Shown one piece after another: positions 52,831 through 57,661 of a stretch of DNA of 64,000 nt (position 1 is the stretch's first letter; each line of letters begins with the position of its first letter). Source of the stretch: Escherichia phage vB_EcoM_VR20; the sequence record NC_028894.1; one strand, 5' to 3'. The position numbers were made by a program, and so were the translations under genes. The notes under the pieces are model-generated. The model saw nothing but the letters and a program-made list of their open reading frames with translations. It did no database searches and had not been told where the DNA came from.

Positions 52831-53619
52831 ATGGCAATTGTAGGTGTTCCTGGTTGGATTGGACAATCTGCCGTAGATGAAACGGGACAACGTTGGATGG
52901 ATGCCGCTATGCGCGATGTGCGAGTTGCAGTACCCGGTTGGATGGGGTCGATGGCAGGACAATCAAAAGAAATTTATCTATCTATAGGGGCTAATAACTC
53001 TTATGATAGAAACTCCCTTATTAACTGGATGAGGGCTCAAGGTGGTGCGCCTGTAGTTATTACAATCACCGGTAACTTAGTATCCAATAGCACCGGTAAC
53101 GCTTGTTTGGAATTTCCTAGCAATCTTCCTAACGCGTATATTCAACTTATCATTAATAGCGGTGTGACTGTTTATGGCCGAGGAGGTAATGGTTCTACTA
53201 ATGGTTCGGCAGGTGGAAACGGTGGTACAGCTATCCATAACGCAGCCGGAACTAAACTCCGTATTCGTAATAACGGCGCTATTGCCGGTGGTGGCGGTGG
53301 CGGTGGCGCAGTATCATTGCAAAATAGCTACCCGACTAATGGTACATGCGGTGGTGGTGGTGGTAGACCATTTGGCGTAGGTGGCAAAATAGGCTCTGAC
53401 GCTATATTGTCCGGTTCGAATGCGTCTTTAACAGCTGCCGGTACAGGTGGTGCTACAGTCCAATATGGTGGAGGTAATGGCGGTAACGTTGGAGCTGGCG
53501 GTGGACGAGGATGGGGCAAAAATGTTTATACCTCTGCAGGTGGCTCAGCTGGTGCTGCTGTCACTGGCAATGCTCCTAACTGGCAAAACGTAGGAACTAT
53601 TTACGGCTCAAGAGTCTAG
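52831..53619 (+). CDS. 38: gp38 receptor-recognising adhesin, T2/T6 type
   Basis: 262 aa; conserved N-terminus MAIVGVPGWIGQSAV.ETGQRWM, poly-glycine blocks, C-terminal GTIYGSRV. Confidence 0.75.
   Translation: MAIVGVPGWIGQSAVDETGQRWMDAAMRDVRVAVPGWMGSMAGQSKEIYLSIGANNSYDRNSLINWMRAQGGAPVVITITGNLVSNSTGNACLEFPSNLPNAYIQLIINSGVTVYGRGGNGSTNGSAGGNGGTAIHNAAGTKLRIRNNGAIAGGGGGGGAVSLQNSYPTNGTCGGGGGRPFGVGGKIGSDAILSGSNASLTAAGTGGATVQYGGGNGGNVGAGGGRGWGKNVYTSAGGSAGAAVTGNAPNWQNVGTIYGSRV
53287..53307 (+). repeat. GGY codon microsatellite encoding poly-Gly inside gene 38
   Basis: ggtggtggcggtggcggtggc seen directly. Confidence 0.6.
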
Positions 53620-54622: not shown

Positions 54623-54805
54623 AGTAAGGATATTGTACTATTATTCCTCTGGGTTGTACACATGATTTTCCATCTGTACAACATATGTCTGATACATATC
54701 TTCAATTGGTTCCTGGAACTTAAAATCAGCTCCAAGGAATTCCTCAAAGCAAGCTTGCTCGCGTGTACGCTGACCAGTAACGGTGTTCTCTAAGTTATGA
54801 CTCAT
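54623..54805 (-). CDS. Small hypothetical protein, 60 aa
   Basis: ATG overlaps the arn stop (ATGA); open frame found by hand, not in the ORF track. Confidence 0.3.
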
Positions 54806-55098
54806 ATGTTATTCCCCATTTCAATATAATCTTCTAGACCAAAATCATCGATTTCTTCTTGGATTTCTCTTAAAATTTGTTCTTCATCTAAGCCAGCGCC
54901 AAAGGTCACTTTAACATAACCGGGACGTTCACTAGAGAACCGAATTGTGTATTCCGGTTGGATATAGCCAAAACTACTATCCAAATCACAAAGAATTTCT
55001 GCATAGATTTCGTCGCCGACATCAGCATGAATTTTAAAAAGTTCATCAATGAGAATAACTAGTTCAGTTGCTTTGTACGTATGGAGTTTAGTAATCAT
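54802..55098 (-). CDS. arn: Putative Arn, anti-restriction nuclease
   Basis: 98 aa, strongly acidic, next to asiA as in T4; not sequence-verified. Confidence 0.45.
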   Translation of the reverse strand: MITKLHTYKATELVILIDELFKIHADVGDEIYAEILCDLDSSFGYIQPEYTIRFSSERPGYVKVTFGAGLDEEQILREIQEEIDDFGLEDYIEMGNNI

Positions 55099-55207
55099 AG
55101 CCTTTACCCTTGTGTTTCTGCTTGCGATTGGATTCTTTAAAGTTTTTCTTCTTGTCCTTATGGACAGACGCCTTATTGAAATCGTGCTTAGCTACCAAAT
55201 TGTTCAT
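55088..55207 (-). CDS. Lysine-rich micro-ORF, 39 aa
   Basis: MNNLVAKHDFNKASVHKDKKKNFKESNRKQKHKGKGYDY; TTGAGGAAATTAC Shine-Dalgarno; overlaps flanking genes in other frames. Confidence 0.3.
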   Translation of the reverse strand: MNNLVAKHDFNKASVHKDKKKNFKESNRKQKHKGKGYDY

Positions 55208-55469
55208 GTAATTTCCTCAATTGATATTCCAAAGAGCTAATAATTTCTTTATTAGTAGCAATATACATATCACGTAAAAATGGTTTTAAGCCGTTCATAA
55301 TTTTGTGAATATTATCAGGAGAAATATGGTTTATATATTCGTGGTCTAAAGCATCCCAGGCGGGTTGGTTAACATAAGTTCCCCAGTTATCTTCCATCAT
55401 AGCATTCAGACGTTTGATATGATTAATATGACCTTCGATTGCATCAATCTGGAGTTGTTTAAGGTTCAT
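55188..55469 (-). CDS. Hypothetical protein (arn to motA island)
   Basis: 93 aa, ATG start. Confidence 0.5.
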   Translation of the reverse strand: MNLKQLQIDAIEGHINHIKRLNAMMEDNWGTYVNQPAWDALDHEYINHISPDNIHKIMNGLKPFLRDMYIATNKEIISSLEYQLRKLHEQFGS

Positions 55470-55951
55470 TAGTAAAGGTCCTCTGAATAAAGTTCGTCTT
55501 CGCGTCCACCACGTTCAATACGTACCTGGCCTGCATAAGTAGCAATAATCATGGCTTCTTTACGAGTCCAATAATTGCTGTATTGGTCGATAAATCCTTG
55601 GTCGTCACCACATACCTGACATGAAACCACTTTGTCTTCAACTGCATCCAATACTGCAGCCATGTCTTTAGAATAATGACGAGCACCCGGAATAACGAGT
55701 GTTCCACCTTCCTTTAATTTAAAACGGTTCGCTGCTGAAACAATACGTCGTTGGAATTTCTGGTCATTACACCAGTACCCGAGTTCCCAACAGATTTCTG
55801 GGACTTCATCCAGGACATCTTGTTCTGTATATTCACCACCATAAGAAGCTAATTTAGCAGCCAGACTTTCAGGAGTCTCGCGTGACAGAGCCTTATCTAA
55901 CAGAGCTAAACGTTCTTCAAAGGATAATTCTTTACCTTTTAATGGATTCAT
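55469..55951 (-). CDS. Hypothetical protein
   Basis: 160 aa; ATGA overlaps on both sides. Confidence 0.5.
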
Positions 55952-56295
55952 TTGATATTCACCTTATAACCATTATATTTCACGAATTCATGAATTTTAT
56001 CACCAATACCAATCAGCTCGCCTTTATCAGGAGAAGCTAATTTGATATCAACTGTTTGACATACACCAAACGAAGTTATGGATACTTTTTCTATAGTAAT
56101 AATCTCAAGAAAACGTGATAACTGCATACCAAATTCAAGAGTAACATTATCAATTTGGAGATGAAGGTTATAAATTACCTTAATACCATTCACCAGGGCA
56201 CAGCGCTCATCCCAAGCGTTACGTTGCTCTTCAATCAATTTAAGGGAATGGCCTTCGCCATCCCAATTTAGTTCCATAGGAATCATTTGAACCAA
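55948..56295 (-). CDS. Hypothetical protein
   Basis: 115 aa. Confidence 0.5.
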
Positions 56296-56615
56296 CCTTT
56301 AACACGTTGCCACAGACTTTTCTGTTGAGCTTTATTAACACCAATTGAGCGAATAACTGGTTGTGATTCCTGGTATTCTTTGTAGTCAGCTTTATATACT
56401 TCATATGCTGCTGGAACAAAGGCACCAATCGCTGCCATGAAGTTCTTGCGTGCACCAAATGGAGCTACTGCATCATCTTGGCGGTGGATAAGATACTGAC
56501 CAGCTTTAACCTTGACAATAGTTCCAAGGTAAGCGCCATGATACCAAACATCCCAACCCTCTTGAGTAGGTTCTACACAAGCGCGCAATTCATTAACAAT
56601 ATTCAGCTTATTCAT
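56283..56615 (-). CDS. Hypothetical protein
   Basis: 110 aa. Confidence 0.5.
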   Translation of the reverse strand: MNKLNIVNELRACVEPTQEGWDVWYHGAYLGTIVKVKAGQYLIHRQDDAVAPFGARKNFMAAIGAFVPAAYEVYKADYKEYQESQPVIRSIGVNKAQQKSLWQRVKGWFK

Positions 56616-56622
56616 AATTTCC

Positions 56623-57231
56623 TCACTTTAAGATGTTAATAACATGTTGAATGTTTTCAGTTGACATAACGTTGTCAATGTAGGTATTCAATCCACCCAC
56701 TTTAACGCTAAATCCCACGTCTGTAAACTGTTTTACTATCTTTTGTTCAGTATTATACGCATGCACGCGAATCTGACCATCACGACGAACATCAATCTGT
56801 TTTAATGTCTTGACACGCTTGAACTTCACAATCAGATTGCTGCGGTCTTCTGAAATGCTCTTAAAGTCAATACCAATAGACAACAATTGCTCTTTGATAT
56901 ATTCTGCAGTCGCTTCCATTTCATCAGTCACACCGCGTTTTGTTCTTGTCTTCTTCACTTCCAGAAGGTCGGGATTATTTTCATTCGCCCAAAGTTCAGC
57001 TGCATCCAGAATAAGGTCAACACCTTTTTCTGTAACCATCAAACCATCACCAGAAGCTTCAACATAGTTGTTATTCAACAATGTCTGTACGCTATCAATT
57101 GATGTGTTCTGCTGGTCTAAAACAACCTCTGGACTCACAAAGTTGTTTTTGTATACAAACACCAGAGCATTGACATCAGTCTCATGCAGCGCGTTCTGGG
57201 AGCATTTAACGATATAATTTAACTTGTTCAC
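56623..57231 (-). CDS. motA: Middle transcription activator MotA
   Basis: 202 aa (T4 211); matches recalled T4 MotA (..ASGDGL..TEKG.DLI..AAELWA.EN.P.LL). Confidence 0.85.
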   Translation of the reverse strand: MNKLNYIVKCSQNALHETDVNALVFVYKNNFVSPEVVLDQQNTSIDSVQTLLNNNYVEASGDGLMVTEKGVDLILDAAELWANENNPDLLEVKKTRTKRGVTDEMEATAEYIKEQLLSIGIDFKSISEDRSNLIVKFKRVKTLKQIDVRRDGQIRVHAYNTEQKIVKQFTDVGFSVKVGGLNTYIDNVMSTENIQHVINILK

Positions 57232-57449: not shown

Positions 57450-57540
57450 TTTATTCTCCAAAGTTTTTGTGATTCAGTGTGTAACTCAGTATGGAATCAT
57501 TATGCATCAGGTCAAGGGAATTGTACACTACTTTTTAAAA
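57450..57540 (-). promoter_or_regulatory. Promoter cassette, near-duplicate of the one at 39723
   Basis: AAAAAGTAGTGTACAATTCCCTTGACCTGATGCATAATGATTCCATACTGAGTTACAC. Confidence 0.5.
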
Positions 57541-57541
57541 T

Positions 57542-57563
57542 AAAAAAGGACCCCGAAGGGTCC
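57542..57563 (-). terminator. UUCG hairpin terminator
   Basis: A-run then ggaccc-cgaa-gggtcc. Confidence 0.55.
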
Positions 57564-57661
57564 TAGTCTTTATCTATCTTATTGCCAATAAACATACCAA
57601 CAATCACACCCGCGATTGCCGCGAAAACACAAAGTAATGCAAACTCCACTCCAAAACTCAT
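57563..57661 (-). CDS. Hydrophobic micro-ORF, 32 aa
   Basis: MSFGVEFALLCVFAAIAGVIVGMFIGNKIDKD; ATG overlaps the gene 52 stop; below the track cutoff. Confidence 0.35.
   Translation of the reverse strand: MSFGVEFALLCVFAAIAGVIVGMFIGNKIDKD

Follow-up and report, generated by a model that had tools for sequence, protein, structure and literature searches.

A CmdA-like helical hairpin in Arn.3, and its possible role as an antitoxin mimic, in the motA–arn block of a T-even phage

The gene block between motA and the arn-like gene

The DNA analysed here, referred to throughout as the window, is a stretch of 64,000 nucleotides from Escherichia phage vB_EcoM_VR20 (NC_028894.1), and the element in question is a block of four minus-strand open reading frames (ORFs) between motA and an arn-like gene. 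A first-pass annotation had described these ORFs as a translationally coupled island of unknown function, and they are indeed present where it placed them. The block is part of the conserved motA–arn–asiA host-takeover operon and comprises arn.4, a gp271-like gene, arn.3 and arn.2, which form one translationally coupled unit downstream of motA. The gene cluster as such is already known and unremarkable; the subject of this report is chiefly Arn.3, which is a fusion of the N-terminal two-helix module of the bacterial antitoxin CmdA with a widespread phage domain of ~100 amino acids (aa). The four genes and the two parts of Arn.3 are laid out as follows.

55188–55469, minus strand: ORF of 93 aa, arn.2 orthologue
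55469–55951, minus strand: ORF of 160 aa, arn.3 orthologue, encoding a two-part protein
55841–55927, minus strand: CmdA-like two-helix hairpin, Arn.3 residues 9–37, matched by PADLOC PD-T4-9_B
55469–55819, minus strand: core domain, Arn.3 residues about 45–160, with the precomputed Pfam label PF26092
55948–56286, minus strand: ORF of 112 aa from ATG, SP18 gp271-like, a lineage-specific insert
56283–56615, minus strand: ORF of 110 aa, arn.4 orthologue

Orthology was assigned by BLASTP against the translated T4, SP18 and VR25 loci, and families by PHROG profiles. The earlier statement that none of the four could be assigned no longer holds at the level of orthology, as they correspond to T4 arn.2, arn.3 and arn.4 and to SP18 gp271; at the level of function it stands, there being no published function for Arn.2, Arn.3, Arn.4 or SP18 gp271. 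Because strong PHROG matches were obtained for all four (E 1e-40 to 1e-68), they are real, conserved genes. Nor do they resolve into known housekeeping genes: searches of the four proteins against Pfam, NCBIfam and PDB sequences gave nothing significant, PDB profile searches were empty, and no informative family match emerged from these sources or from PHROGs. The third ORF had been given a length of 115 aa; the ORF exists, but a 112-aa product from the ATG at 56286 is likelier than one from the TTG at 56295, because this start matches the SP18 gp271 annotation and gives an ATGA stop/start overlap with the upstream gene.

The ~3.2 kb around the four ORFs are 91–96% identical to phages TH57, VR25, SP18 and VR7, and the region is that of a T-even phage of the Gaprivervirus type. 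On the plus strand, the genes run in the order gp37, T2-type gp38, holin t; on the minus strand, asiA, asiA.1, the arn-like gene, the four ORFs, motA, a motA.1-like ORF and gene 52 follow. The order of the Arn.2, Arn.3 and Arn.4 genes between motA and arn/asiA, on the same strand, is kept in T4, SP18, VR25 and 13 BASEL phages; arn.1 of T4 is absent from the window. Translational coupling is borne out by the junctions, which consist of a 7-nucleotide gap containing GAGG between the motA stop and the arn.4 start, ATGA overlaps at the arn.4/insert and insert/arn.3 junctions, and a one-base overlap (TAATG) between arn.3 and arn.2.

The CmdA-like hairpin of Arn.3

PD-T4-9 is CmdTAC, a toxin–antitoxin–chaperone (TAC) system whose antitoxin is CmdA. 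The system is triggered when the T-even capsid protein displaces the SecB-like chaperone CmdC from the C-terminal tail of CmdA, which is then degraded by ClpXP via its C-terminal Ala-Ala, leaving CmdT free to ADP-ribosylate mRNA and abort the infection (PMC9519451, PMC11618068). Protection by CmdTAC is specific to the Tevenvirinae.

Arn.3 of the window is 68% identical to T4 Arn.3 (BLASTP E=1e-78) and belongs to phrog_839 (E=7e-68). The sole informative library match among the four proteins was that of Arn.3 residues 9–37 to positions 2–30 of the 77 in the PADLOC model PD-T4-9_B (E=1.7e-10), and this match is specific to the CmdA model. A reference CmdA (77 aa) was taken from a cmdT–cmdA–secB-like operon in an E. 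coli P2-like prophage, located with a published primer sequence. Aligned without gaps to residues 2–30 of this E. coli CmdA, Arn.3 residues 9–37 are identical at 19 of 29 positions (66%) and similar at 24 of 29. The two proteins reach a Smith-Waterman score of 91, whereas shuffles average 22 (z=16), and none of 5000 composition-preserving shuffles scored as high; when the six-frame segments of the window were searched with CmdA, Arn.3 was the only match in 1047 (E=1.5e-7). Judged from these sequence comparisons, the CmdA-hairpin homology of Arn.3 is specific and statistically solid. No paper in the literature searched ties arn.3, or any phage gene, to CmdA, and as far as can be told the homology is unreported.

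The AlphaFold2 (AF2) model of Arn.3, built from a 59-sequence alignment, has a mean predicted local distance difference test score (pLDDT) of 90 and a predicted template modelling score (pTM) of 0.71, and places helices at residues 11–23 and 27–36, followed by a linker. The predicted helix pair sits at the same place as that described for CmdA, and the Arn.3/CmdA match ends exactly where the disordered CmdA tail begins. The unstructured chaperone-addiction tail of CmdA is not found in Arn.3, in which residues 50–160 are instead a folded domain (pLDDT 96–98). The Ala-Ala ClpXP degron is likewise missing: Arn.3 ends in an invariant SEDLY, whereas CmdA sequences end in LAA or FAA. Nor does arn.3 lie between genes for CmdT and a SecB-like chaperone, its neighbours being the gp271-like gene, arn.4 and arn.2. 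Having been tested for the tail, the degron and the operon context of CmdA and found to lack all three, Arn.3 does not count as a CmdA family member. No CmdT homologue was found in T-even phages by tblastn, which rules out the idea that the hairpin serves a phage-encoded CmdT-like enzyme. Searches with the 5' end of arn.3 gave nothing against E. coli genomes (blastn) and only chance-level matches against plasmids (tblastn). In a 203-aa Arn.3 variant (P0005), the hairpin is present in tandem duplicate, a window-type copy being followed by a T4-type copy.

The core domain of Arn.3

The remainder of Arn.3 carries the Pfam label PF26092, which was precomputed on all Arn.3 homologues; a Pfam-A search of Arn.3 returned no such model. 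Over ~95 aa the domain displays the motifs RIVsAANR (RIVxAANR), GARHYS (GxRH), QGFIDQ (QGFxD) and TRxEA (RxEA) and a C-terminal LYSEDLY, with 18 invariant, mostly polar residues, and a compact alpha/beta fold is predicted confidently for it (AF2, pLDDT 96–98). Its relatives fall into 3153 clusters at 50% identity, and the phage records that contain it number 1572, with Vi1-like, rV5-like and jumbo phages among them. The hairpin is confined to the T-even branch of this family, being carried by 38 of 119 close homologues versus 1 of 145 distant representatives.

No solved structural relative of the core domain was found, and neither in fold nor in sequence does it resemble the macrodomain, ARH or NADAR hydrolases. 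Its BFVD matches are uncharacterised phage proteins, among them weak matches to 'large polyvalent protein associated domain' proteins (E about 1e-3, template modelling (TM) score about 0.35), and ten long fused homologues showed no partner domains in Pfam. As a very large and strictly conserved phage family, the core domain is a good target for structure determination whatever the Arn.3 hairpin does.

CmdA-like hairpins in other phages

When 50,697 phage records were searched with CmdA by tblastn, 293 of them matched and, among the matches listed, most lie in or beside T-even arn.3. A different setting is provided by Vibrio phage 1.103.O, in which a free-standing ORF of 51 aa, located with head and neck genes (locus L022, 1986–2141), matches CmdA. 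With a Vibrio CmdA taken from the complete cmdTAC of a P2-like Vibrio phage as reference, this ORF shows 20/30 plus 11/15 identical positions, versus 15/30 plus 3/15 to E. coli CmdA. The SYEAKGPLA-DFL extension is common to the ORF and Vibrio CmdA, and the ORF corresponds approximately to the N-terminal 45 residues of the Vibrio-type antitoxin, a resemblance that makes it a candidate minimal anti-CmdTAC protein. The hairpin copies of enterobacterial phages lean the opposite way, toward E. coli CmdA. Internal copies were found in 320–324-aa proteins of phrog_11133 from two further phages:

Locus L021, 1686–2660: Acinetobacter phage LAPP1, phrog_11133 protein with internal hairpin copy KPFEERLELLDKALSKETPESLAEKLQSY
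Locus L023, 1689–2651: Klebsiella phage PCCM_KpP_22 (Jedunavirus), phrog_11133 protein with internal copy of the same hairpin

The genes for these proteins adjoin helicase genes and, in LAPP1, also a Cas4-like gene. The hairpin module is mobile among phages and tracks the CmdA of the host.

Flanking genes and transcription

The features that surround the block, and that bear on how it is expressed, are these.

54802–55098, minus strand: arn-like gene, 98 aa; phrog_8202 (E=2e-44) and phrog_3151, 'inhibitor of MrcBC restriction' (E=6e-5)
55088–55207, minus strand: lysine-rich ORF, 39 aa, MNNLVAKHDFNKASVHKDKKKNFKESNRKQKHKGKGYDY, equivalent in position and sequence to SP18 gp268 / JS98 gp248
56623–57231, minus strand: motA, 202 aa, GTG start; Pfam MotA_activ (E=6e-12) and MotCF (E=5e-9), phrog_1345 (E=2e-71)
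57488–57527: promoter-like sites, just downstream of the terminator
57547–57564, minus strand: strong intrinsic terminator, AGGACCCTTCGGGGTCCT plus a T-run, in the interval from gene 52 to the motA.1-like ORF

The identification of motA as one flank is confirmed by both Pfam MotA domains and phrog_1345. The other flank, which had been called arn, is arn-like, but full identity as arn is not borne out, given its weak match to the McrBC-inhibitor family (E=6e-5) and its 31% identity to T4 Arn over 36 aa (BLASTP E=0.002). The four proteins of the block themselves show no significant similarity to T4 Arn or phrog_3151 by BLASTP or PHROG searches, and the 'anti-restriction nuclease' label that several database records attach to Arn.2, Arn.3 and Arn.4 is annotation carry-over from the gene names, without a basis in sequence. 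The 39-aa ORF, which is conserved, shares bases with both the end of arn.2 and the beginning of the arn-like gene, thereby filling an apparent 89-nucleotide gap, and occupies the position of T4 arn.1.

The terminator and promoter-like sites probably mark the start of the motA–arn–asiA transcription unit. Together with the lack of an internal MotA box, they suggest that the four genes are probably co-transcribed with motA; a MotA-box middle promoter was sought inside the block, and no strict match was found. In T2, arn.4-arn.3-arn.2-arn.1-arn is one transcript, stabilised by the host small RNA (sRNA) ArcZ, for which arn.2 is a published target; arn.4 to arn are described as an early-acting middle transcript, the operon is needed for escape from McrBC, and arn.1 to arn.4 are stated to be without known function (June 2026 preprint on T2).

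Outside the block, gp38 of the window (52831–53619, plus strand) is a T2-type adhesin of 262 aa with glycine-rich repeats. In SP18 and VR25, the closest relatives here, gene 38 is shorter (546 nucleotides) and is annotated 'tail fiber assembly', as in T4. As the gp38 type of the window differs from that of SP18 and VR25, the tail-fibre module is mosaic.

Arn.2, Arn.4 and the gp271-like insert

Arn.2 of the window is 40% identical to T4 Arn.2 (E=8e-22) and 85–96% identical to its SP18 and VR25 counterparts, falls into phrog_1844 (E=1e-40) and is probably helical, to judge from its sequence; no PDB match was found by sequence or profile search. At the 3' end of T4 arn.2 (locus L004, 1877–1920) lies a site, CCAGGGAAA, whose complement is the 5' end of ArcZ in its processed form. 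This site was not found at the 3' end of arn.2 in the window (55188–55230) or in the whole 54.3–57.5 kb block. T2-type ArcZ/RNase E regulation was accordingly rejected for this phage: CCAGGGAAA is absent, and the duplex energy is no better than that of shuffled sequence. As the ArcZ site is absent, host-sRNA protection of the arn transcript is probably not conserved here.

Arn.4 is 100% identical to SP18 Arn.4 and belongs to phrog_1594 (E=1.5e-52). Over its C-terminal 60 aa, the part covered by the T4 annotation, identity to T4 Arn.4 is 80% (E=3e-35). In the protein, a beta-rich N-terminal half precedes a conserved C-terminus that is helical and basic; neither sequence nor profile searches of PDB gave a match, and a single-sequence AF2 model was discarded (pLDDT 44). 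The annotated T4 Arn.4 (68 aa; locus L004, 2628–2834) is only the C-terminal part of a 109–114-aa protein that is seen in the window, SP18, VR25, Erwinia phage FBB1 and the aligned BASEL phages, such that T4 arn.4 looks 5'-truncated or mis-started.

The insert is 94% identical to SP18 gp271 and matches phrog_14178 (E=5e-68). T4, VR25 and all BASEL phages examined lack it, and tblastn found it in 48 phage records only (JS98, JS10, SP18, IME08, Bp7, WG01 and similar), always between arn.4 and arn.3; it is specific to Gaprivervirus/Dhakavirus. Some Arn.3 homologues (P0021, P0058, P0077, P0105) start with MIPMELDWDG..., the N-terminus of the gp271-like gene, and the shared start indicates that the adjacent genes were joined into one by deletion or recombination. 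For Arn.2, Arn.4 and the insert, no defence-related family match was obtained in Pfam, PHROGs, NCBIfam or PADLOC. These three are probably further accessory host-interaction proteins.

A possible antitoxin mimic and its alternatives

We tentatively propose that Arn.3 is a degron-less, chaperone-independent mimic of the CmdA antitoxin, the best supported of the readings, to which we give somewhat under an even chance. Made from the takeover operon, Arn.3 would presumably be at hand ahead of the capsid synthesis that triggers CmdTAC. If the helix pair is the toxin-binding part of CmdA, the hairpin of Arn.3 would occupy the CmdA site on CmdT-type toxins, and would stay on the toxin once CmdA is destroyed. 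The stable C-terminal domain would stand in for the unstable CmdA tail and free the hairpin from chaperone dependence and proteolysis, and may bring an activity of its own; a phage so equipped would be expected to benefit on cmdTAC hosts. The neighbouring arn-like gene, asiA and motA are host-takeover genes, a context that was counted in favour of the antitoxin-mimic reading. The first-pass annotation had guessed at an anti-defence role from location; the CmdA-like N-terminus of Arn.3 adds sequence evidence for one gene only, and the data on natural variation fit such a role only in part.

Those data come from the plating of 12 BASEL T-even phages on cmdTAC, in which the only escapers were Bas35 (efficiency of plating (EOP) 0.85) and Bas38 (EOP 0.32) (Vassallo et al.). 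Arn.3 was extracted from 13 BASEL T-even genomes, of which that of Bas47 lies outside the 12 plated. A T4-type N-terminus, NPFINRLKMLNVPL..., with a proline in helix 1 and 10–11/30 identities to CmdA, is present in 8/13, and all eight phages are restricted (1e-3 to 1e-7); the type with an intact helix is present in the other five, Bas35, Bas36, Bas38, Bas46 and Bas47. Both escapers carry the intact type (one-sided Fisher P=0.09, with two of the four plated intact-type phages restricted), such that the published plaquing data are weakly consistent with an antitoxin mimic.

Several points weigh against that reading. Bas36 (EOP 5e-6) and Bas46 (EOP 3e-5) carry intact-type hairpins and yet are fully restricted, even though the Bas36 allele is the closest to CmdA among the phages tested (16–17/30). 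The hairpin allele is hence not sufficient against the CmdTAC of ECOR22, and as the sole cause of escape it is ruled out by these two phages. In addition, Gp23 of Bas35 (locus L027, 1750–3315) and Bas38 (L028, 1759–3324) share A138S, D199 and G201 relative to restricted Bas36 (L029, 1750–3315), with all 19 sites that vary among the three lying within residues 138–220; T4 Gp23 also has A138. Evasion of the trigger through the capsid would explain the escape of Bas35 and Bas38 equally well. T4 has Arn.3 and yet is CmdTAC-sensitive, and its escape mutants in the literature were mapped to alt.-3 rather than to arn.3. For the N-terminal helices of CmdA, the role of CmdT-binding surface is taken from an AlphaFold model in the literature and from how TAC antitoxins are generally organised. 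Conservation of so short a helical hairpin could also have structural reasons. Moreover, because nearly all of the ~3000 core-domain clusters are without a hairpin, the function of the core is independent of CmdA mimicry. The plating data are compatible with a hairpin that is necessary but not sufficient, and do not establish its role.

The most substantial alternative, which we hold to be possible although doubtful, is that the hairpin is a generic structural module for dimerisation or host-factor docking, shared by descent or shuffling, and that Arn.3 has nothing to do with CmdT, its activity residing in the core as an enzyme or small-molecule binder. An ancient core with 18 invariant, mostly polar residues that nearly always occurs without the hairpin would fit such a picture, as would the very different contexts of the hairpin (the Arn.3 N-terminus, the middle of a 320-aa protein encoded next to helicase genes, a 51-aa ORF), the failure of intact-type alleles to protect Bas36 and Bas46, and the hydrophobic nature of many conserved positions, as expected for a helix–helix core. 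However, 66% identity over 29 residues, surface charges included, exceeds what fold maintenance usually requires, the PADLOC match is specific to the CmdA model, and the Vibrio phage copy follows Vibrio CmdA past the hairpin, which points to capture from, or exchange with, cmdA. A broader form of the antitoxin-mimic reading builds on such captures: unrelated virulent lineages (T-even phages, a Vibrio siphovirus, a Klebsiella Jedunavirus and an Acinetobacter phage) may repeatedly have captured the putative toxin-binding hairpin of CmdA and deploy it without its degron, stand-alone or grafted onto other proteins; such proteins would constitute a general class of TAC inhibitors, in which the T-even partner domain might itself act on ADP-ribosylation. 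We consider this conceivable, with a likelihood well short of even.

The four genes might instead be ordinary, dispensable early/middle accessory genes that tune takeover through transcription, RNA or membrane physiology, the CmdA likeness being a relic. Probable co-transcription with motA, the proximity of asiA, the variable content of the slot (arn.1 lost, the gp271-like gene gained, T4 Arn.4 truncated), the apparent recombination scars of metagenomic phage proteins in which a gp271-like N-terminus is fused to Arn.3, and the lack of defence-related family matches for Arn.2, Arn.4 and the insert are all in keeping with this explanation. We nevertheless judge it unlikely: the hairpin is clearly conserved in hundreds of T-even genomes (293 records) and once tandem-duplicated, arn, next to these genes, has a proven anti-restriction role, and McrBC escape in T2 draws on the operon. 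Counter-defence enzymes abound in the large polyvalent protein arrays of phages, and the occurrence of related folds in such arrays (E about 1e-3) lends some appeal to a further proposal, in which the core domain removes or prevents ADP-ribose marks on RNA, or consumes NAD+/ADP-ribose, and the hairpin only tethers it to CmdT. Rosetta-stone logic, by which a toxin-binding module would be fused to a domain whose invariant Arg, His, Asp, Gln and Glu residues are reminiscent of an enzyme, argues in the same direction. Yet the polyvalent-protein matches are weak (TM about 0.35), the core resembles neither macrodomain, ARH or NADAR hydrolases nor any solved structure, and the hairpin–core fusion is confined to the T-even branch, such that this proposal appears improbable, the most so of those considered.

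Significance and comparison with known systems

Few defence systems are known to stop T-even phages efficiently. CmdTAC is among them, and the literature searched contains no report of a natural phage inhibitor of it. If Arn.3 neutralises CmdT, a function would be at hand for a gene conserved in hundreds of T4-like genomes, and the plaquing of some T-even phages on cmdTAC hosts would be explained in part. The antitoxin mimic would also be directly recognisable from sequence, and the same principle could serve in mining for other inhibitors of toxin–antitoxin systems; the hairpin could become a predictive marker in the design of phage-therapy cocktails.

Among T-even phages, the window differs from T4 in lacking arn.1, in carrying the gp271-like insert and in an Arn.3 hairpin that is much closer to CmdA than that of T4 (19 versus 11 identities in 30), and differs from T2 in an arn.2 without the ArcZ pairing site. 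With Arn itself, the McrBC inhibitor and DNA mimic, the four genes share only the operon. Residues 9–37 of Arn.3 are homologous to residues 2–30 of CmdA of the E. coli P2-like prophage CmdTAC, that is, to its N-terminal helix pair; unlike CmdA, Arn.3 is encoded by a phage, has twice the length and carries a globular domain of 100 aa as fusion partner of the hairpin.

Phages are known to deploy several substitutes for host antitoxins, including T4 Dmd against RnlA/LsoA, T4 TifA against ToxN, T4 AdfA against DarT, and phage pseudo-ToxI. The logic proposed for Arn.3 would be alike, a stable phage neutraliser replacing a lost host antitoxin, and Dmd, TifA and AdfA are likewise small T-even accessory genes. 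To our knowledge, no sequence similarity of Dmd, TifA or AdfA to the cognate antitoxins has been reported. Unlike these three, Arn.3 shows a direct likeness to the antitoxin, borne by one module of a larger protein whose neutralising activity is predicted from that likeness.

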